A stretch of DNA of 64,000 bases from an uncultured Clostridia bacterium. Lineage in GTDB: Bacteria; Bacillota; Clostridia; TANB77; CAG-465. The stretch covers positions 139,767 to 203,766 of the forward strand of contig CAKPEI010000002.1 of NCBI GenBank assembly GCA_934149365.1, given 5' to 3'. Both the position numbers and the translations under genes were made by a program. The notes below the pieces were generated by a model, which had not been told where the DNA came from, did not search any database, and saw only the letters and a program-made list of their open reading frames with translations. Below are positions 9,261-62,132 of this stretch, piece after piece (the first letter of the stretch is position 1; the number at the start of each line of letters is the position of its first letter).

Positions 9261-10445
9261 TTAGCTTGAAAGAGAAGAAGTATCTTCTTGCACATTTTCT
9301 AATATTTTAGCATCGTCAATTTGTTTTAAACCTAAGTTTATGAAATAAACTATTACAAGCCAAGCAAGAACTGTCATTGTTAATTGTACTAGATAATATG
9401 GAGCTTCAATAGGCATATCCCATACACCATGTAATACAACTGGTATTAGACAAATTAATAAGAATCTTCTATCATTTATGTGTTTTTTGTCTAGCTTATC
9501 AAAGCCTTTAACGTACATTAATGCTGCACCTTCAATAGCTGCCCAAGCAACGTGCCCGCCAGGAGCTAAGAAACCACGTAATTTTATTATTTCAAGCATT
9601 GCTTGAAGACCACTATTTAAACCGAATTTTAATATATATCCAGCTGTTTCAAAAGCTGCGAAACCGGCACCAACTGCTGCACCTATTAACAAACCATCTA
9701 ATATATAGTTACTCTTTTTACTTTTGAATAAGAAAACTGCAACTATAACTGCTTTTGCCGCTTCTTCAACTAAACCAATTAGTAATGCACCCATGTAAGT
9801 TTGGGTTGTAGCGTTTGCATCGAAGTATGGGAGTGAAAAATAAAGTATTGCCAAAATCAATGATAATGCTCCACCCAGTACAAAGTATTTTATAACTTTA
9901 TAAAAAGGTATGTTCCTAAATAAATTAATTTCAAAGAAAAACATTAATACTGTTACAGGAACAGCAAAAGCAGCTAGCATAATCATTATAGGTAAAAAGT
10001 TAATGTTTCCATATGATATAAATCCAATACGTGTAGGAATATATGCAATTAGGAAAAATACTAATATTTTGAAATATACCCATGCACTAGCTTTAGTAGG
10101 ATCAATATCTTTTAGCTCAGGAGTGGTTTTTTCTGAGCCACAAGTAAATAATTCATCTAATTCTTCATCAGAATGTTTTTTTAAAGTGTTTTTAAATAAG
10201 TCTTTAAAAGTTACATAGCTTTTTGATGTTGCTCCAGTTAACCTATCTAGGTTTTCAGTAATTATATTTGTTGCATTTTTTTTATTGATAGGGTACCCGC
10301 AATCAGGGCAATTTATTTCATCACCTTTTAATTTTCTGCCACATTCTGGGCAAGTTTCTAAGTTTATTTTTACTCCACAATGTGGACAAGTTTTTGCACT
10401 TGAAGAAATACTTTCTCCACATTCTTCACATTTTATTAGTGCCAT
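9261..10445 (-). CDS. PrsW-family intramembrane protease with tandem N-terminal zinc-ribbon domains
   Basis: N-terminal CEECG..CPHCG and CPECG..CPDCG. Multi-pass membrane domain with the PrsW motifs EEAAKA (EExxK), FAAFETAGY (FxxxE) and GGHVAWAAIEGAAL (H...W). A terminator hairpin ACCCCAGAA...TTCTGGGGT + T-run lies 3' of the gene. Confidence 0.65.
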   Translation of the reverse strand: MALIKCEECGESISSSAKTCPHCGVKINLETCPECGRKLKGDEINCPDCGYPINKKNATNIITENLDRLTGATSKSYVTFKDLFKNTLKKHSDEELDELFTCGSEKTTPELKDIDPTKASAWVYFKILVFFLIAYIPTRIGFISYGNINFLPIMIMLAAFAVPVTVLMFFFEINLFRNIPFYKVIKYFVLGGALSLILAILYFSLPYFDANATTQTYMGALLIGLVEEAAKAVIVAVFLFKSKKSNYILDGLLIGAAVGAGFAAFETAGYILKFGLNSGLQAMLEIIKLRGFLAPGGHVAWAAIEGAALMYVKGFDKLDKKHINDRRFLLICLIPVVLHGVWDMPIEAPYYLVQLTMTVLAWLVIVYFINLGLKQIDDAKILENVQEDTSSLSS

Positions 10446-10446
10446 A

Positions 10447-11169
10447 TTATTTTCCTCCTTCTGTTAGGGTAGATAAGATATGTTCAGCTACGCTATTAAT
10501 TTCACTTGTGTTTGTATTTTCTTCTTTAGAACCAACCATGTATACTTTACCATTTATGAGTACAGCATATCTATTGTCAATTATTAAATGATTATTAGAA
10601 GAGTAAGAATATGCAATACCGTATACCGTTCTGTTTCCAACAACTCCAGAAAGTAAATCTATTACAATTTTAAGATCGCTACATTCTTTTTTCATGTATT
10701 CAGTAAAACTATTTAAGAATGTAGTTTCGTTATTAAAGTTATCATATCTTCCAACAATTATATATGGGATAAGAGGCCCTTGGTCATCTATATTTTGACC
10801 AACATATACATAACCTTCTTTATCAGTTGTAACCTTGTAACCATTAGGTATTTCAAAAGATATACCTAAATATGGATCGGTATATACTGAATAACCGCTG
10901 TTTGATGAAGGAGTAGTAGTTGGTGAAGAAGGATTACCAGTTCCAGTACCACCTGTATTATTGTTATTACTACTTTGACCAAACATGAAATAACATATTG
11001 CAATAATTGCAACTACTATTATTACATATTTTAAGTTCCCAGTATTTAAAGAAATTTTGTTTTTCTTTTCACCAGAAGCAGGAGCTTTTAATTCATATCC
11101 ACATTTTGGACAGCTATCTGCCTGGTCACTTATTTTGTTTTTACATTCAGGACATTCTATTAATGCCAT
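10447..11169 (-). CDS. zinc-ribbon membrane protein (N-terminal CxxC-x-CxxC ribbon, transmembrane helix, Thr/Gly/Pro/Ser-rich linker, extracytoplasmic domain)
   Basis: N-terminus MALIECPECKNKISDQADSCPKCG is paralogous to the N-terminus of the downstream PrsW-like gene (MALIKCEECGESISSSAKTCPHCG). Its stop codon is 1 nt from that gene's start codon. Confidence 0.5.
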   Translation of the reverse strand: MALIECPECKNKISDQADSCPKCGYELKAPASGEKKNKISLNTGNLKYVIIVVAIIAICYFMFGQSSNNNNTGGTGTGNPSSPTTTPSSNSGYSVYTDPYLGISFEIPNGYKVTTDKEGYVYVGQNIDDQGPLIPYIIVGRYDNFNNETTFLNSFTEYMKKECSDLKIVIDLLSGVVGNRTVYGIAYSYSSNNHLIIDNRYAVLINGKVYMVGSKEENTNTSEINSVAEHILSTLTEGGK

Positions 11170-17897: not shown

Positions 17898-17926
17898 TTG
17901 AAAAAAGTTTTTAGATATAGTAGAAT
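17898..17926 (+). promoter_or_regulatory. promoter of leader L1 (TTGAAA-N17-TAGAAT)
   Basis: Consensus-like -35 and -10 hexamers with a 17-nt spacer, about 40 nt upstream of the leader ORF's ATG. The three paralogous leaders carry the same architecture. Confidence 0.45.
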
Positions 17927-17967
17927 AAATGCGTAGAGTTTTAACATAGAAAGAAGAGGTGAAATAT

Positions 17968-18048
<81 letters not shown>

Positions 18049-18109
18049 AAATGAAGCTACAAAAGTAGCTGTATTTGGCGTGCAAGAAATATATATGAAA
18101 AATATAGAA

Positions 18110-18147
18110 GTTAGTTATGTATAAAAAAGTACATAGCTAACTTTTTT
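18110..18147 (+). terminator. intrinsic terminator/attenuator of leader L1 (12-bp stem + TTTTTT), 34 nt upstream of the gene's ATG
   Basis: GTTAGTTATGTA-taaaaaag-TACATAGCTAAC followed by TTTTTTCTGC. There is no room for another promoter before ATG 18182. Confidence 0.6.
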
Positions 18148-18181: not shown

Positions 18182-19786
18182 ATGAAAAAACAAAGAAAAG
18201 GAATATCACTAGTAGTACTTACAATAACAATAATAGTGTTAATAATACTAGCAGGAGTAACAATATTAACAATATCAAATGCAGACTTAATAAATAAATC
18301 GACTGAAACTGCATTTAGGTCAAATATATCAAATTATTTAGAAGAGTATAACGCATGGTTATCGATAGAAAAAATGAAACATAGAGGTAATTTAGAAATA
18401 TCAAAAATAAATGCATCAAATAAAGTTGCATATAACGGGAATTATATAACAGATATAATAAAAAATATAAAGAGTGAAGATATAGAAAAGTATGAAATAA
18501 TAGGTGGGAATTTAGTATATACAGGAACAGGAGAGAAAGATAATACTAAATTAGAAAATGAAACAAAATGGGCAAAAGAAGTAGGTTTGAAATCAGTAGA
18601 AAAAGCAAAAGGAGAAGAAGATACAATAGTATTTACCAATACCACAAGTGATAGTAGATATAACGATTTAAAAGTGTGTGGAAGCAGTGAAAATGGAGTA
18701 ACTGGTTTAAGTGAAATATCACTTACAGTAACACAAAACTTGATAGATAATGGCTTCGGAGAGTACAAAGATGGAACGAACTTTTCATCATATGTGGCTA
18801 ATATTCCAAGTGAAAAAGTAAAAGGTGGAATATCTTGCTTTTACACTGAAGAAACAGGAGGCTTTCACCAAAATTGTAGAATCAAAGACTATATTACAAT
18901 AGATAGAAATAAAAAGTATGAAATATCCATGTATGTAAAACCAAATGTTGTTGGTGAAAGGATATATTCAGGACTTATGGAATACGATGTGGATAAATTA
19001 TTAGTAAAGGCAGAACAAGTAATGTATATACCAGATACACTAACATATCTTACAGAAGATTTAAAAAATGGAGATACAGTAGTACATTTAGATGATGTAA
19101 GTAATTTTGTGAATAGTACTCAAACATATAAAATGGGCTTTATTTTTTGGAATTATAAAGATAGTACAGGGCATTTGTATGAACCATTGACGTACTCATT
19201 AAATACATGGAGTGATTTATATACAGCAGATAATGTAGATAAAACAAATAACACAATAATATTAAAAAGCGCATGGAATAAAGGGACTATTAAGGCAGGA
19301 ACAAAATTAAGTCAATGTGATAGCGGAAGTACTTTTAATTATTCACTTGATTTTAATATTAAGGAGTCAACAGACTGGGAATATAGGCATGAAACTATTT
19401 CTGGTGTGGGTTTTGGCCGTACTGTGTTTAGAGCTGCTACAAAATATGTTCAGTGGTTTATAATGCCAAATTATAACTATATAGAGGGCGGAGGAGCTAA
19501 GGTAGCAAATATAATCTTTGCAGAAAGTGATAAGTATAATAAGATATATACAATAGATATGACAGGACATGAACCATTAAGAACAATGGAAGATGGAACA
19601 AGTGATTATATAGATTTTAAGACAAAGAAGATAGTAAGAAATGTAGGAGTAAATAATGGAACAATGTATAAATTAAGTAGTGTAACATATGAAGATATAC
19701 TACTTCCAAATATTCCAATATATGAGAGGAATACCGCAATAACATTAAATCAAACAGGAAGGCTAGAAGGAACATACCTAAAATAA
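18182..19786 (+). CDS. prepilin-like N-terminus protein, paralog 1 (MKKQRKG|ISLVVLTITIIVLIILAG..., large variable C-terminal domain)
   Basis: Basic N-terminus, K-G, then a ~25-aa hydrophobic helix, as in type IV (pseudo)pilin or class III signal peptides, but without Glu+5. The N-terminal region is shared with the genes at 35486, 38954 and 60954. GGGAG ribosome-binding site. A 12-bp perfect hairpin lies 3' of the gene. Confidence 0.55.
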   Translation: MKKQRKGISLVVLTITIIVLIILAGVTILTISNADLINKSTETAFRSNISNYLEEYNAWLSIEKMKHRGNLEISKINASNKVAYNGNYITDIIKNIKSEDIEKYEIIGGNLVYTGTGEKDNTKLENETKWAKEVGLKSVEKAKGEEDTIVFTNTTSDSRYNDLKVCGSSENGVTGLSEISLTVTQNLIDNGFGEYKDGTNFSSYVANIPSEKVKGGISCFYTEETGGFHQNCRIKDYITIDRNKKYEISMYVKPNVVGERIYSGLMEYDVDKLLVKAEQVMYIPDTLTYLTEDLKNGDTVVHLDDVSNFVNSTQTYKMGFIFWNYKDSTGHLYEPLTYSLNTWSDLYTADNVDKTNNTIILKSAWNKGTIKAGTKLSQCDSGSTFNYSLDFNIKESTDWEYRHETISGVGFGRTVFRAATKYVQWFIMPNYNYIEGGGAKVANIIFAESDKYNKIYTIDMTGHEPLRTMEDGTSDYIDFKTKKIVRNVGVNNGTMYKLSSVTYEDILLPNIPIYERNTAITLNQTGRLEGTYLK

Positions 19787-35088: not shown

Positions 35089-35117
35089 TTGAAAAAAGAA
35101 AATAGATAAGGTAAAAT
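35089..35117 (+). promoter_or_regulatory. promoter of leader L2 (TTGAAA-N17-TAAAAT)
   Basis: Same TTGAAAAAAG... architecture as the L1 and L4 promoters. Confidence 0.4.
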
Positions 35118-35160
35118 TAGAACTTGAGAAGAAAAGAAAAAATAACAAAGGAGAAAAGTT

Positions 35161-35292
35161 ATGTTGGCAATAATGCGTGCAAGTGTTGAAACTCTAGAGA
35201 GAAGTACAACTAAAAATATAGCTACAAAAGTAGCTTTAGTTTGCATGCAAAAAATAAATTATATAAAAAACATAAAGTTAGGTATATACTAA
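35161..35292 (+). CDS. leader peptide ORF L2 (43 aa, MLAIMRASVETLERSTTKNIATKVALVCMQKINYIKNIKLGIY), long form ending in the terminator loop
   Basis: AAAGGAGAA ribosome-binding site. Its C-terminal half is homologous to the alternative-frame extensions of L1, L3 and L4 (ATKVA.F/C.QKI...). The stop TAA sits in the loop of the terminator hairpin. Confidence 0.4.
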   Translation: MLAIMRASVETLERSTTKNIATKVALVCMQKINYIKNIKLGIY

Positions 35293-35315
35293 GAAAGTAT
35301 ATAGCTAGCTTTTTT
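35276..35315 (+). terminator. intrinsic terminator/attenuator of leader L2
   Basis: AGTTAGGTATATAC-taagaaa-GTATATAGCTAGCT (14 bp, 1 mismatch) followed by TTTTT. Confidence 0.55.
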
Positions 35316-35485
35316 GAGCTATATGTAAAAGATAAAATAAAGGTATAAACATAGTAAATGCAATTAAAAATGATTGCAAAAATTAAATTAATGTGAAATA
35401 ATATGTATATATTAAAATAATTTGTTTAAAGAATACGAGGGGGTAAAAAATATGGGAACAAATAAAAAACGGTATATCATTAATA

Positions 35486-36652
35486 GTGTTAGTAATAACA
35501 ATAATAGTGATGATAATTTTAGCCGCAGCAATAATTTTATCACTATCAAATAACGGAATAATAGGAAAAGCAGATAAAGCCAAAATAGATAGTGATACAG
35601 CAAGTTTAAAAGAGTATGTAAACACATTAAGAGCAGAGTATGAGCTAATGACAGCAGATGAAAGAAATAGGAAAACATTTGAAGCATATGCAAATGCCAA
35701 ACTGGAAGAAAATGGCTATAAAGGAGCTGCCATAGATGTAGATGGCAAAGTACATTCTAACTTAACTGAATCAGCAAAGACGGCAATAAAAGCAGGAATA
35801 AAAGTAGGAGATAAAGTTGAGGGGTATATATTAACAGAAAAAAGTTATACAACAAGTGGTGAAGAAAATGATGGTATAAAACAAACGTTAAAAACAGATA
35901 CATCAGTAACATGGAAATATATAGGAATAGGAGAAGATGGAAACTTAGAGATAGTAGCAGATATTTCAGCCACTGAAATTTCTAAGTCTGCTGCAGAATA
36001 TAAAATATCGTTATTAGCAACTGGTGGACCAACAGAAGAAACGGGAACTTCTAAGAAAACTTTGACGTTATCAGGAAAAGGTGGATATTTAAATGGACCA
36101 GCAGAACTAGATAAAGCGTGTGCAACACTATATTCAGTAGATGGAAAAGGAACAGCAAAAAGTATGAACATAGACCATGTAACAAGAATATTAGGTTATA
36201 CAGGAGAAAAAGGTTCATATTTGGATGCAGATGGTAATTACGTAAAAACAGCAGAAGCAATGACAATAGGAGAAATAGAAAAAAAACTTGGAACAGAGCT
36301 AAGGTATAGAACAACACCAGATGGAAAAGATATATCAACATATAAATCAGACGATTACTATATAAATAAAACAAGTGATGTAAGTAAAATGCAAAATGCC
36401 GGAAATGTAGGACTAGTATATGGCTCAACAGAATATTGGCTTGCCTCTTCGTCTGTCTATGCAGATTTCAGTAATAAATGTACAGAATTTTATATGCGTT
36501 ACGTGCAATTAGAAGGAGTGGATAGATTTGCTATGTTTAAGTCATTTAATTACTGGGATAAATTTTCATGTGCCATTCGACCGGTAGTTTCATTAGCATC
36601 TAATATTCAGATAGAAAACGGAAGAAATGTTGGTACTTGGGTTATAAAATAG
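35486..36652 (+). CDS. prepilin-like N-terminus protein, paralog 2 (closest to paralog 4); apparent frameshift at the 5' end
   Basis: The ORF track begins at GTG 35486 (MLVITIIVMIILAAAIILSLSNNGIIGKADKAK...). The paralog-consistent ATG at 35452, with a GAGGGGG ribosome-binding site, is out of frame because of an A6 tract at about 35464-35469; A5 would restore MGTNKNGISLIV.... Confidence 0.55.
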   Translation: MLVITIIVMIILAAAIILSLSNNGIIGKADKAKIDSDTASLKEYVNTLRAEYELMTADERNRKTFEAYANAKLEENGYKGAAIDVDGKVHSNLTESAKTAIKAGIKVGDKVEGYILTEKSYTTSGEENDGIKQTLKTDTSVTWKYIGIGEDGNLEIVADISATEISKSAAEYKISLLATGGPTEETGTSKKTLTLSGKGGYLNGPAELDKACATLYSVDGKGTAKSMNIDHVTRILGYTGEKGSYLDADGNYVKTAEAMTIGEIEKKLGTELRYRTTPDGKDISTYKSDDYYINKTSDVSKMQNAGNVGLVYGSTEYWLASSSVYADFSNKCTEFYMRYVQLEGVDRFAMFKSFNYWDKFSCAIRPVVSLASNIQIENGRNVGTWVIK

Positions 36653-38632: not shown

Positions 38633-38661
38633 TTGACAGGTAAAAAAATATAATATAAAAT
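38633..38661 (+). promoter_or_regulatory. promoter of leader L3 (TTGACA-N17-TAAAAT)
   Basis: Consensus hexamers with a 17-nt spacer, 40 nt upstream of the leader ORF. Confidence 0.45.
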
Positions 38662-38699: not shown

Positions 38700-38771
<72 letters not shown>

Positions 38772-38834
38772 TATCTAGAAATAAACTAGATAGAGGTTTT
38801 TGCACTCAAAAAATAGATATATTAGATAAAATAA

Positions 38835-38874
38835 AGTTAGTTATACAGAGTAAAAAGTATAGCTAGCTTTTTTG
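38835..38874 (+). terminator. intrinsic terminator/attenuator of leader L3
   Basis: AGTTAGTTATAC-agagtaaaaa-GTATAGCTAGCT followed by TTTTTT. Coordinates may be off by 1. Confidence 0.55.
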
Positions 38875-38953
38875 CGTTTAAAACAAGGTATAACCATTGC
38901 ATTAAGCAATGTAAATATACAATATTAAGTTTTATATGAAATGGGAGGTAAAA

Positions 38954-39904
38954 ATGATGAAAAACTTAAGAAAAAACAAAAGCGGAATATCACTGATAGT
39001 ACTAGTAATAACAATAATAGTAATGATAATACTAGCCGCAGCAATAATATTATCGCTATCAAACAGTGGAATAATAGGAAAGGCGAATACTGGTAAGACA
39101 GAATATTCTTTAGCTAGCATAAGAGAAAAAATAGGACTTGAATTGTTAGAGCAAAAGCTTAATGATAATGTAAGCAAAGAAAACGTGGAAAGTGTACTAT
39201 CAAAATATGGAGAAGTAACGTATGAAGATGAAGGAAAAAATATAATTAGGGGAGTTAAAGTAAAAGAATATGATAAAGAAATATTAATTTCAGAAATAGC
39301 AGAAGAATATGCACTTCCAAAGATAGAAGACTTTGAATATACGTTTGATTTTGAAATGGCGGCAAAGCAAATTCCGCTTGATCAAGGAAATTTGAATAAA
39401 TCGAGTAATGTAGTTGCTGTGTCATATAAAAAAGGCGAAATAGAAACAGCATGGTTTACAGATAGTTTTTCAAAAAAAGGTCTTAAGCTTTGTTATAATA
39501 ATTCTCCAAAAGAAACGGGTAAAAGAAATGTACAAAATGTAAACTTTAGTACATTAAAAATTGGATCTGGACAATTTTCAATGAGTGTAACAGGAAATAT
39601 GACAGAGTGGACAAGTGAAACGTTGAAATGGAATAAACCAATAACCAAGGAAATAATTTTGGAAAATACATCGTCTGAGGAAATGACTGGTAGTTACATA
39701 GTATATTTAGTGGGAAAAGATATAGAAGTAAGTGATAATGTACAAAAGTGTTTAAAGATAAGAATAAAGGATGAAAATGGAAATCTTGTAAAAGTATTTT
39801 CACCTAGAGAAGTGTTTTCTGGAACTACACTTGTAACAGGAGTTATACAACCAGGTGAAACAGCCAAATATACCATAGAATTTGAATTACATTTTGATAT
39901 ATAA
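38954..39904 (+). CDS. prepilin-like N-terminus protein, paralog 3 (MMKNLRKNKSG|ISLIVLVITIIVMIILAAAIILSLSNSGIIGKA..., distinct C-terminal domain)
   Basis: ATG 38954 after a GGGAGG site; the ORF-track start at 38936 overlaps the ribosome-binding site. The N-terminal 45 aa are near-identical to paralogs 2 and 4. A terminator hairpin follows at about 39918-39952. Confidence 0.55.
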   Translation: MMKNLRKNKSGISLIVLVITIIVMIILAAAIILSLSNSGIIGKANTGKTEYSLASIREKIGLELLEQKLNDNVSKENVESVLSKYGEVTYEDEGKNIIRGVKVKEYDKEILISEIAEEYALPKIEDFEYTFDFEMAAKQIPLDQGNLNKSSNVVAVSYKKGEIETAWFTDSFSKKGLKLCYNNSPKETGKRNVQNVNFSTLKIGSGQFSMSVTGNMTEWTSETLKWNKPITKEIILENTSSEEMTGSYIVYLVGKDIEVSDNVQKCLKIRIKDENGNLVKVFSPREVFSGTTLVTGVIQPGETAKYTIEFELHFDI

Positions 39905-47044: not shown

Positions 47045-47120
47045 GGGCGCATAGCTCAGTTGGGAGAGCATCTGCCTTACAAGCAGGGGGTCATAGGTTC
47101 GAGCCCTATTGTGCCCACCA
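47045..47120 (+). tRNA. tRNA-Val (anticodon TAC)
   Basis: GGGCGCATAGCTCAGTTGGGAGAGC..., anticodon loop CTTACAA, T arm GGTTCGAGCCC, CCA encoded. Confidence 0.85.
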
Positions 47121-47131
47121 TTTTTTTATTT

Positions 47132-47208
47132 GGCCTGGTAGTTCAGTTGGTTAGAACGCTAGCCTGTCACGCTAGAGGTCGTGGGTTCGAGTCCCATCCA
47201 GGTCGCCA
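47132..47208 (+). tRNA. tRNA-Asp (anticodon GTC)
   Basis: GGCCTGGTAGTTCAGTTGGTTAGAAC..., anticodon loop CTGTCAC. Confidence 0.85.
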
Positions 47209-47219
47209 TTTTTTTATAT

Positions 47220-47295
<76 letters not shown>

Positions 47296-47341
47296 ATAGT
47301 AGTACTAAAAGAAAATATGTTACATATAATATATTAAGAAC

Positions 47342-47417
47342 GCGGGAATAGCTCAGTTGATAGAGCGCTGCCTTGCCAAGGCAGAGGTCGCGGGTTTGAG
47401 CCCCGTTTCCCGCTCCA
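47342..47417 (+). tRNA. tRNA-Gly (anticodon GCC)
   Basis: GCGGGAATAGCTCAGTTGATAGAGC..., anticodon loop TTGCCAA. Confidence 0.85.
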
Positions 47418-47476
47418 AATTTTATGTACATAAGAAATGCTGCTTTGCATATGATGTAGTATAAAATATTATATAG

Positions 47477-47550
47477 GGCGCTATAGCCAAGTGGTAAGGC
47501 ACGAGTCTGCAAAACTCTGATCCCCGGTTCAAATCCGGGTGGCGCCTCCA
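47477..47550 (+). tRNA. tRNA-Cys (anticodon GCA)
   Basis: GGCGCTATAGCCAAGTGGTAAGGC..., anticodon loop CTGCAAA, T arm CCCGG-TTCAAAT-CCGGG; the short D loop is typical of tRNA-Cys. Confidence 0.75.
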
Positions 47551-60522: not shown

Positions 60523-60551
60523 TTGAAAAAAGAAATAATATATAGTAATAT
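60523..60551 (+). promoter_or_regulatory. promoter of leader L4 (TTGAAA-N17-TAATAT)
   Basis: Same architecture as the L1 and L2 promoters. Confidence 0.4.
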
Positions 60552-60592: not shown

Positions 60593-60655
60593 ATGTTAAC
60601 TAAAGAGCATGCAAACGGTATAACTCTAGAGAGAGCATACAATTTAAGAATATAG
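60593..60655 (+). CDS. leader peptide ORF L4 (20 aa, MLTKEHANGITLERAYNLRI) with a short (GA)3 tract
   Basis: GAGGTG ribosome-binding site. MLTK...TLER is conserved with L1 and L2. The alternative frame (minus 2 nt in the GA tract) extends to a TAA at about 60733, in the terminator loop. Confidence 0.4.
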   Translation: MLTKEHANGITLERAYNLRI

Positions 60656-60716
60656 CTACAAAAGTAGCTGCGTTTTGCGTGCAGAAAATAAAAGAATATA
60701 GTAAAGTAAAAAAAGA

Positions 60717-60756
60717 AGTTAGTTATACAGAGTAAAATGTATAGCTAGCTTTTTTG
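60717..60756 (+). terminator. intrinsic terminator/attenuator of leader L4
   Basis: AGTTAGTTATAC-agagtaaaat-GTATAGCTAGCT followed by TTTTTT. Confidence 0.55.
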
Positions 60757-60953
60757 CGTCTAAATAAAAAGAAAAGCAAAAATTAATTAAGGTATAATCA
60801 TGATAGTAAATCATGTAAATATACACAGCCATATATACATAAAAAACATAACCAAAAATACATAAAAGCAATTAAAAACAATTGCAAAATTTAAAGTAAT
60901 GTGAAATAATATGTATATATAAAAATTGTTCTAAGAAAATGGAGGAAAAAAGT

Positions 60954-62132
60954 ATGAGAACAAAAGTTAAACTAAAAGGCGGAATATCATTAATAGTATT
61001 AGTAATAACAATAATAGTAATGATAATATTAGCCGCAGCAATAATTTTGTCACTATCAAATAGTGGAATAATAGGGAAGGCAAATAAAGCAAAGACAGAT
61101 AGTGATACAGCAAATTTAAAAGAGTATGTAAATACCCTAAGAGCAGAATGGGAGTTAATGACAGCAGATGAGCAAACAGCAGAAGGTTCATTTGAAGCGT
61201 ATGCAAACAAAAAGCTAGAAAAGAGTGGCTACAAAGGAGCAGTAGGAGCAGATGGAGAAGTATATTCAAACTTAAATGAAAATGCAAGAAAAGCAATAGT
61301 AGCGGGAATAAAGGTAGGAGATGTAGTAACAGGATATACAGTAACATCGACTACATATACAACAGACGGAAGAGAGAATACATGTGACCAAAATAGCCAC
61401 ACAGAAACCAATCCACAACCACAAACCATAACAACAAATACAGATATAACATGGAAATACTTAGGAACAAATGCAAATGGAGAGCTAGAAATAATGGCAG
61501 ATTTATCAACGGCAAATGCAGTAGCAACAAATACAAAAGTAACGTTAGGAGGAAAAGGTGGATACCTAAATGGACCTGCAATGTTAAACACAATATGTGA
61601 AAAGCTATATTCAAAAGAAGGAGTAGGAACAGCAAGAAGTATGAATATAGATGATGTAAATAATATATTAGGATATACAGGACCAAAAGGAACATATTAC
61701 GATAATAATAATAATGAAGTAAAAACACCAACAGCATTAACAATAGGAGAAATAGAAAGTAAACTGGGAACGACATTAGGAAATGGAACAACACCAGATG
61801 GAAAAGACTTAGGAACATATTATGCAGATTATTACTATATAAATAAAACAAGTGATGTAAAAGAGATGGAAAATCCGGGTAATATAGATTTAGTATACAA
61901 TGCTAAAAATACGTACTGGCTTGCTTCTCCATGTGTCAGTATGGCTTTTGGTCTCAGCGATGCAAACTTCCTTGTACGCTGCGTTGGCTCTGCTGGCGTG
62001 GACGCGAGCGGTGCGTTCGGTTCGAATGTCTACTCTAGCATCTATGCGTATGCGGTTCGCCCCGTAGTTTCTCTAAAATCTAATATCCAGTTAACACGAG
62101 ATGCTGGGGAAACAGAATGGAAAATAAAGTAG
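60954..62132 (+). CDS. prepilin-like N-terminus protein, paralog 4 (MRTKVKLKGG|ISLIVLVITIIVMIILAAAIILSLSNSGIIGKA...; C-terminal YWLASP...AVRPVVSLKSNIQ)
   Basis: ATG after a GGAGG site; the ORF-track start 60939 lies inside the ribosome-binding site. The N-terminal ~110 aa and C-terminal ~130 aa are paralogous to the gene at 35486, with a divergent Thr/Asn-rich middle. Confidence 0.6.
   Translation: MRTKVKLKGGISLIVLVITIIVMIILAAAIILSLSNSGIIGKANKAKTDSDTANLKEYVNTLRAEWELMTADEQTAEGSFEAYANKKLEKSGYKGAVGADGEVYSNLNENARKAIVAGIKVGDVVTGYTVTSTTYTTDGRENTCDQNSHTETNPQPQTITTNTDITWKYLGTNANGELEIMADLSTANAVATNTKVTLGGKGGYLNGPAMLNTICEKLYSKEGVGTARSMNIDDVNNILGYTGPKGTYYDNNNNEVKTPTALTIGEIESKLGTTLGNGTTPDGKDLGTYYADYYYINKTSDVKEMENPGNIDLVYNAKNTYWLASPCVSMAFGLSDANFLVRCVGSAGVDASGAFGSNVYSSIYAYAVRPVVSLKSNIQLTRDAGETEWKIK

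Follow-up and report, generated by a model that had tools for sequence, protein, structure and literature searches.

Two covarying helices in the leader RNA of putative phase-variable attenuators from uncultured gut Clostridia

Leader-peptide attenuators and the modules of the window

In the pyrBI operon of Escherichia coli a ribosome on a leader open reading frame (ORF) that runs through the attenuator blocks the terminator hairpin, and in the trp operon of the same organism the polymerase pauses at the leader hairpin 1:2 and so waits for the ribosome. Das et al. are said to have found in 1983 that a distal segment of the trp leader pairs with the trpL ribosome-binding site and shuts off leader translation, and for the maturation gene of phage MS2 Poot et al. 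reportedly described in 1997 a distal segment that pairs with the start region, with ribosomes loading only on nascent, unfolded RNA. The subject here is a set of four homologous leader modules, L1 to L4, which align to each other and all lie on the + strand of a 64,000-nucleotide (nt) stretch of DNA from an uncultured Clostridia bacterium (GenBank assembly GCA_934149365.1, contig CAKPEI010000002.1, positions 139,767 to 203,766; the whole stretch is referred to as the window). Each module carries a small hairpin, P2, followed by a sequence box, and on balance we favour the reading that hairpin and box are two elements of one folded leader-RNA domain in a phase-variable, ribosome-dependent attenuator.

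The modules resemble pyrBI in that the leader ORF runs into the terminator, where a ribosome is proposed to block the hairpin, and trpL in that a distal segment pairs with the leader start region, a feature which by analogy might serve for shut-off or for pausing here. They differ from both pyrBI and trp in having no regulatory codons and no nucleotide sensing, the input being a heritable change of frame, and from trp in having no 2:3-type antiterminator. Assignment to the trp/his type of attenuator was rejected for the lack of such an antiterminator and of any common run of regulatory codons beyond the repeat. The likeness to the MS2 maturation gene is closest in one divergent clade of leaders (the second clade, below), the box of which exactly complements the AUG region; unlike in MS2, the start site is here closed by a strand downstream of it, and the ORF concerned is that of a regulatory leader; the kinetic effect is deduced from predicted opening energies.

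In the literature searched, Streptococcus gallolyticus is the sole organism with experimental evidence for a terminator switch worked by a repeat within a leader peptide. GCAGA repeats in the leader peptides of pil1 and pil3 alter their length, and termination at a stem-loop is relieved when translation extends into it (Danne et al. 2014, PMC3894217). With those loci the modules of the window share a short leader ORF with a simple repeat whose unit length is not divisible by 3, an intrinsic terminator that separates the leader from surface-structure genes, and short-frame stops some 30-70 nt before the terminator with long-frame stops inside it; read-through of pil1 and pil3 is credited to a ribosome covering the terminator, and the same would apply here. 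They differ in that the repeats are dinucleotides (GA or CA) in place of GCAGA, in that one frame of three is ON whereas out-of-frame variants are ON in pil1, in the many copies per genome that stand before a large paralogous family, and in that there is no sequence homology, the hosts here being uncultured gut Clostridia. No description of the P1/P2 leader fold set out below was found in the available part of the pil1 paper (PMC3894217) or elsewhere in the literature searched. The kind of switch is thus itself known, and what is new is its occurrence with dinucleotide tracts and in a new host group, together with the fold.

Each module has a promoter-like sequence (TTGAAA/TTGACA-17-TAnAAT) and a Shine-Dalgarno sequence ahead of a short ORF with its dinucleotide tract; then come the hairpin and the box and, after an AT-rich spacer, a strong terminator, at the positions below (MFE, minimum free energy; z, z-score).

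17898-17926, + strand: L1 promoter-like site TTGAAA-17-TAGAAT (10/12 matches, a consensus match only)
35089-35117, 38633-38661 and 60523-60551, + strand: promoter-like sites of L2, L3 and L4, homologous to the L1 site
17955-17970, + strand: L1 Shine-Dalgarno AGAGGTG and start codon (ATG 17968-17970)
17980-17989, + strand: predicted 5' strand of L1 P1, GCGCGTGAAA, leader codons 5-8 (in the MFE fold at real repeat length 17980-17985 pairs with 18078-18083; RNAduplex -12.2 kcal/mol)
18003-18036, + strand: L1 repeat (AG)17 = (GA)16 within the leader ORF, the putative frame switch
18039-18048, + strand: L1 OFF-frame stops, TAG 18039 and TAA 18046, 16 and 9 nt ahead of the hairpin
18055-18070, + strand: L1 hairpin P2, AGCTAC-AAAA-GTAGCT
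18074-18091, + strand: L1 box, of which 18074-18083 (TTTGGCGTGC) is the predicted 3' strand of P1
18106-18147, + strand: L1 intrinsic terminator, a stem of 13-14 base pairs (bp) with conserved U.G pairs, then T6; the ON-frame stop 18122 lies inside
35161-35315, + strand: L2 module (ATG 35161; (GA)3; hairpin 35220-35235; terminator 35274-35315), locked ON
35174-35183 with 35240-35249, + strand: L2 P1; box 35239-35256
38700-38873, + strand: L3 module (ATG 38700; (CA)15 at 38736-38766; hairpin 38773-38791; terminator 38833-38873; MFE fold z = -3.3)
38710-38715 with 38802-38807 and 38718-38723 with 38795-38800, + strand: L3 P1; box 38798-38815
60593-60755, + strand: L4 module (ATG 60593; GA tract 60629-60635; hairpin 60654-60669; terminator 60714-60755; MFE fold z = -3.55)
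60607-60615 with 60674-60682, + strand: L4 P1; box 60673-60690

Homologous leaders were collected with scans anchored on the terminator alone (AGTTAGNTAT...ATAGCTARCTTTT), an anchor chosen because the test should not be biased toward hairpin or box. The genome scan gave five leaders in CALXJE01, a metagenome-assembled genome (MAG), and the metagenome scan four further ones; the remainder came from an nhmmer profile run on contigs encoding relatives of the downstream proteins. With the repeat tract collapsed, the dataset consists of 26 distinct leaders from human-gut metagenomes (Hadza and other cohorts) and uncultured Clostridia MAGs, in five lineages: a GA type (L1, L2, L4 and relatives), three CA-type groups (the L3 group, the L035 group and the MAG group) and the divergent second clade (L050-L059). 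A scan of viral contigs for CA-type leaders gave no matches, and no leader was present upstream of the gene at L031 (protein ~42% identical) or at the P0060 loci (L044-L049). On the sequences collected, the element appears limited to a narrow clade.

A Shine-Dalgarno sequence and ATG are present in all four leaders of the window and in the homologues, all of which keep the start of the leader ORF as ATGTTAAC or ATGTCAAC. The tract is long in L1 ((AG)17 at 18003-18036) and L3 ((AC)15.5 at 38736-38766), and L2 and L4 have short GA tracts. When the frames of each leader were read by translation after taking out 0, 1 or 2 repeat units, exactly one frame (the ON frame) ended +8 to +30 within the ~34-nt terminator in 25/25 complete repeat-bearing leaders, and the remaining two (the OFF frames) ended 33-71 nt upstream of it. 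In the window the ON-frame stops of L1 to L4 are at 18122, 35290, 38864 and 60733, and the OFF stops, which either precede the hairpin by 0-16 nt or run into its first bases, at 18039/18046, 35211/35219, 38769/38776 and 60645/60653. L1 as assembled is OFF, and the loss of two units leads to the frame that enters the terminator. Leaders with long tracts were assembled mostly in an OFF frame, and those with decayed tracts of 2-4 units (L2, L003, L001, L019) are fixed ON. Leaders that are otherwise identical vary in repeat count between samples, with 9, 11 and 13 units at one locus and 15 versus 16 at another. The terminator, which begins 15-25 nt after the box in all four leaders of the window, has 14 conserved pairs, two of them compensatory (RNAalifold), and since its arms are joined through conserved U.G pairs it folds only in + strand RNA. 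The defining sequence features of the pil1 type, namely a leader ORF with its own ribosome-binding site, a variable repeat of a unit length not divisible by 3 and a terminator with the corresponding short- and long-frame stops, are all present, and judged by their sequence the modules are phase-variable leader-peptide transcription attenuators of the pil1 mechanism, in which read-through would depend on translation of the leader.

The sequence just ahead of the repeat is kept within each type (38724-38736, 60616-60628), as TTGGGAGAGTAA before (CA)n and as GGTATAACTCTA before (GA)n, and the CTCT of GGTATAACTCTA can pair with the first GAGA units.

Hairpin and box as parts of two probable helices

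A first-pass annotation of this DNA, made from the sequence alone, had described a small hairpin in each of the four leaders, and its placement of them was exact. The sequence AGCTACAAAAGTAGCT occurs in three exact copies in the window where 0.01 would be expected, each on the + strand (18055, 35220 and 60654), and ATCTAG-N7-CTAGAT (in L3 ATCTAG-AAATAAA-CTAGAT) occurs once, at 38773-38791, against 0.03 expected. The compensatory stem changes that had been noted are also real, the two versions differing at two of six pairs with both sides changed and the pairing kept (G:C to U:A; C:G to G:C), and a perfect stem of 6-7 bp stands at the same place in all lineages. Counted on an alignment in which the loop was swapped for a fixed linker, the covariation score of P2 is 0.232 versus 0.098 in shuffles (0/500 reach it), and 88% of P2 cells are paired versus 82% in shuffles (3/500 reach it) and 16-41% in slid controls. 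The only stem change seen, an A to G that gives a U.G pair, arose two independent times (L010 and L054a). The loop by comparison varies, with six 7-nt versions and one of 4 nt, and in eight CA-type leaders no stem column of 12 is variable as against 3/7 loop columns. The peptide that overlaps P2 is wholly different between the two types (IATKVA versus ISRNKLD). These column counts, and variation that is spread evenly across codon positions, uphold the proposal that selection acts on the RNA structure and not only on the peptide, and no constraint at the level of the peptide was seen. One decayed leader, L005, is without its ATG and has lost the stem; it retains a perfect P1 and the terminator.

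The box begins 3-6 nt past the hairpin in all four leaders, and its pattern has four matches in the window at up to two mismatches, against 0.38 expected, which fall only at the four leaders. The degenerate consensus first given for it fits L1 exactly but L2, L3 and L4 only with 1-2 mismatches, and the near-palindromic core holds in L1, L2 and L4 but is absent from L3 (TTTTGCACTCAAAA) and from the CA-type leaders. It is the most variable segment of the leader (11/22 columns), the variable columns being even over codon positions (3/8, 4/7, 4/7). The box is complementary to the leader's own 5' part, perfectly so in L003 (GAGCGUAAAA with UUUUACGCUC) and also in L005 (AGCAUAAAA with UUUUAUGCU), L035 (AUGCACGUAAAACC with GGUUUUGACGCGCAU) and, in the window, L2 (UGCGUGCAAG with UUUGCAUGCA), L3 (GAGUGC..GAAACC with GGUUUU.GCACUC) and L4 (GCAUGCAAA with UUUGCGUGC). 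Because it varies and yet stays complementary to the leader start region, the box is better taken as a helix strand than as a palindromic protein site, and from its sequence it is the predicted 3' strand of P1, a helix that encloses the repeat tract and P2. Folding of the box as an internal palindromic hairpin, which had been entertained, was rejected, as there is no room for a loop and CA-type boxes are not palindromic.

In every leader the box pairs with the 5' region at the corresponding place, with a predicted energy (RNAduplex) between -6 and -17.5 kcal/mol, and in 24/26 leaders the 5' region is the best partner of the box leader-wide, with a lead over the next best that is usually 4-8 kcal/mol. 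Cognate duplexes average -12.5 kcal/mol versus -9.6 kcal/mol for non-cognate ones (permutation p 5e-5 overall and 7e-4 within the CA type; within the small GA group the test is not significant). RNAalifold on a plain MAFFT alignment of 21 leaders called the terminator only, the hairpin types being misaligned. Since, in addition, the register of P1 varies by lineage, use was made of these energy-based cognate tests and of an alignment registered by hand. In the latter, in which the register was fixed per lineage and bulges were set to N, and which as a fitted alignment leans toward structure, 8/14 pairs change on both sides, 77% of P1 cells are paired versus 66.5% in shuffles and 26-50% in slid controls, and the covariation score is 0.397 versus 0.213 in shuffles (0/500 reach it). 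Single-sequence MFE folding recovered P1 around the repeat tract together with P2 in 7/10 leaders tested, and at real repeat length it recovered P1 in 4/4 leaders of the window (z = -1.9 to -3.6), along with P2 and the terminator. Summed P1 pairing energies are -237 kcal/mol for the + strand versus -199 kcal/mol for the - strand. We regard it as probable that P1 and P2 are real RNA helices.

A further helix, between AUGUC, which includes the start codon, and a GAYAU on the 3' side of the box, would be AT-rich and is too weak for its existence to be asserted. In the spacer, beside the freely varying box, a 13-nt stretch (38816-38830 and homologues, ATATATTAGATAA) is invariant in eight CA-type leaders.

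Proposed closing of the leader start site and rival explanations

The link between box and start region is most direct in the second clade (L050-L059), in which the hairpin is identical but the box, GTTAACAT(GCC), complements the start codon region AUGUUAAC exactly, GTTAACAT itself being the exact complement of ATGTTAAC. In MFE folds of this clade the box and the AUG region pair over 8-14 bp, at times reaching the Shine-Dalgarno sequence; in both box variants, GTTGACAT and GTTAGCAT, an A has given way to G with U.G pairs retained, and the summed pairing energy is -68.5 kcal/mol for the + strand versus -44.2 kcal/mol for the complement. In the window clade the 5' strand of P1 lies within +11 to +24 (codons 4-8) and starts at +11 to +15. 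Conserved complementarity of a distal segment to the ribosome-binding region of the leader's own ORF is therefore a feature of these RNAs. The predicted cost of opening the region from -13 to +16 around the AUG averages 4.2 kcal/mol before box and spacer exist and 7.5 kcal/mol with them, compared with 4.7 kcal/mol for a shuffled tail. The predicted rise is +6.6 in L1, +4.3 in L2, +5.1 in L3, +1.2 in L4 and +3.7 to +9.2 in the second clade, and the effect is strong, in that at most 2/40 shuffles reach the observed value, in 16/25 leaders.

A mechanism can be proposed in which slippage of the tract would shift the reading frame. In the ON frame the ribosome would translate across hairpin, box and spacer into the terminator stem and so keep the terminator from forming; in the two OFF frames it would stop 0-16 nt ahead of the hairpin and the terminator would form. 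Once the box had been transcribed, P1 would close the leader ribosome-binding region, as the predicted opening energies suggest, the frame would be read only by ribosomes loading on nascent RNA close behind the polymerase, and the short leader RNAs released would stay untranslated. P2, which stands where the OFF-frame ribosomes stop, may detain the polymerase, or make it pause, so that the ribosome can catch up, or alternatively may block sliding or re-initiation after an OFF-frame stop. The function suggested for the P1/P2 fold is advanced as a tentative one. In its most developed form the model would make of P1 and P2 a co-transcriptional timing device, with the start site open until the box is made, P2 holding the polymerase at the OFF stops and only the directly trailing ribosome reading the frame, and in this form we consider it rather unlikely. 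In Firmicutes transcription usually outruns translation, and a fold that timed or limited leader translation would give a concrete answer to the question of how ribosome-dependent antitermination stays reliable when the two processes are uncoupled; a timing device, if true, would explain ribosome-blocked termination in Firmicutes and would be a new reusable RNA module on repeat-driven switches across a large gut-Clostridia surface-protein family.

Several observations weigh against the fold or against its suggested role. Both compensatory changes in P2 lie on one deep split and may be a single event, which leaves few independent events and is the main weakness of the case for P2. The covariation signal of P1 comes mostly from differences between the five lineages and is marginal within them (stratified p = 0.043), and because the register of P1 differs among lineages a standard alignment does not show it. 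P1 is weak in L016, L001 and L036 (-6 to -9 kcal/mol), and several other leaders have one mismatch. The effect on opening cost is weak in the MAG group and L4 and nil in some leaders of the MAG group, and in the window clade P1 begins only at the limit of the ribosome footprint, so that occlusion of the start site would be weaker there.

The first-pass annotation had suggested that a ligand or regulator, bound by the hairpin and the palindromic box, governs the terminator in addition to the frame switch, which would make the leaders riboswitch-like or antiterminator-regulated. The strictly conserved stem and the near-palindromic boxes of L1, L2 and L4 would suit such a site, and an RNA-binding protein that recognises P2 would be compatible with sequence analysis alone. 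The search with covariance models that had been recommended, however, gave no match at the leaders with Rfam 15 at gathering thresholds, and with E-values up to 10 it gave only chance-level matches to microRNA and small RNA families, at least 40 bits below their thresholds. There is no conserved unpaired core, the P2 loop varying freely, and no conserved alternative pairing with the terminator for a ligand to switch: a search for antiterminators, in which each of the terminator arms was tried with the 5' region, with the box plus spacer and with the hairpin, gave energies at the level of shuffles, and box plus spacer paired with the terminator 5' arm more weakly than shuffles. The box, far from being a fixed site, is the most variable segment (11/22 columns) and non-palindromic in the CA type, its conserved trait being complementarity to the start region, and half-site spacings of N4 versus N7, the two loop lengths of P2, would not be tolerable for a dimeric DNA-binding protein. 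With no conserved antiterminator, Rfam relative or unpaired core, a ligand or protein sensor is neither needed nor indicated, and we hold this explanation to be very improbable. No more credit can be given to the idea that the conservation is due solely to the overlapping leader-peptide codons, hairpin and box being by-products. Both elements do lie within the ON-frame ORF and a short F-C/Y-x-Q motif recurs in several leaders. Yet the variable columns of the box are even over codon positions, IATKVA and ISRNKLD are unrelated although both RNAs fold, the stems are without any synonymous change, the sole change in the stem region is non-synonymous (D to G) and keeps a U.G pair, and the peptide of the box is itself variable (C/Y/N/D, T/A/V/M, Q/P/H/R/K).

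It might also be argued that the inverted repeats act at the level of DNA, either as a site for a recombinase or invertase or by forming a cruciform that influences slippage, in keeping with the position of the P1 strands on either side of the repeat tract and with the appearance of the leaders as recombination hot spots, where the same gene is met in different upstream contexts. That is highly unlikely, as every recovered leader is in one orientation with no inverted variant seen, the + strand RNA pairs better than its complement both in P1 overall and in the second clade, and single-side changes are of the G.U type, which favours RNA. Finally, P2 and the T-run that follows it may be chiefly a hairpin-dependent pause or a weak first terminator, with P1 secondary, a reading that is compatible with a folded leader domain and differs in emphasis. 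In the tlrB/yxjB and vmlR leaders of Bacillus subtilis NusG-dependent hairpin pauses give time for leader translation (PMC6851288, PMC12288461), and such a pause is defined by a non-template TTNTTT from -11 to -6, with an RNA hairpin 11-12 nt ahead of the pause (PMC12288461). The present leaders are like these in being Firmicute leader-peptide attenuators with a hairpin and then a T-rich stretch, and attenuators of that kind are known to need NusG- or hairpin-dependent pauses (PMC6851288, PMC12288461). P2 also lies 0-16 nt after the OFF stops, where an arriving ribosome would melt it, and a consensus scan flags P2 of L4 with CGTTTTGCGT as terminator-like. On the other side, unlike in the B. 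subtilis leaders, the TTNTTT motif is not conserved, and the T-run is TTTT in the GA type, TTTTT at 5 nt from the stem in most of the CA type and lacking in the second clade. Membership in the class of NusG-dependent, hairpin-stabilised pauses was rejected because the motif is not conserved across the leader types, which leaves pausing at P2 as a possibility only, and as the chief role of the element a pause seems unlikely. Of all these readings, the folded leader domain with P1 and P2 is the one that we prefer.

Downstream genes and surroundings

The genes that the four modules of the window would control are as follows.

18182-19786, + strand: gene controlled by L1, 534 amino acids, with a hydrophobic pilin-like N-terminus
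35453-36652, 38954-39904 and 60954-62132: equivalent genes behind L2, L3 and L4

The four proteins have in common a pilin-like hydrophobic N-terminus, K-G-[GI]-S-L-[IV]-V-L..., without the Glu5 of type IV pilins. Comparison of the downstream proteins with Pfam, NCBIfam and cluster names gave no family and no names. The N-terminal domain is common to at least 721 database proteins, and among the matches listed a few relatives carry dockerin, leucine-rich repeat or sulfatase-modifying (FGE-sulfatase) domains. In uncultured human-gut Clostridia many copies of the switch per genome would thus stand before a family of more than 700 related surface-type proteins. The signature of terminator, hairpin and repeat could serve to annotate phase-variable genes in gut metagenomes, and the repeat counts would allow the ON or OFF state to be read directly.

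There are signs of exchange at these loci. One downstream gene (10001-11110) is found behind three upstream contexts (L050, L051 and L052), and L051 and L057 have the same context (SMC gene, 199-amino-acid protein, 596-amino-acid protein) and leader with different genes (P0038 versus P0029) in different samples; such mixing of genes and contexts suggests recombination that swaps gene cassettes. The related strain L030 (7789-7905) lacks the whole L2 module and its gene (35095-36652) from the interval that separates the SMC gene from its neighbour, a presence/absence polymorphism.

Behind each terminator, at 38887-38920, 60791-60826 and 35342-35378 and also in L050-L059, there is a conserved GGTATAA, then a hairpin that pairs while varying in sequence, then AAATATA. 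The versions of this hairpin are CCATTGC/GCAATGG-like in L3, TCATGAT/ATCATGA in L4 and CACAA/TTGTG in the second clade, and this may represent a further structured element or else a processing site. In L4 the stretch that separates terminator and gene holds a promoter-like TTGCAA-17-AATAAT with an upstream TG (60882-60910), with homologous sequence in L2 at ~35374-35403; if active, the site behind the L4 terminator would bypass the switch. The window also contains ordinary chromosomal features, namely a 6S RNA at 767-915 (48 bits) and a cluster of five tRNA genes at 47045-47547.

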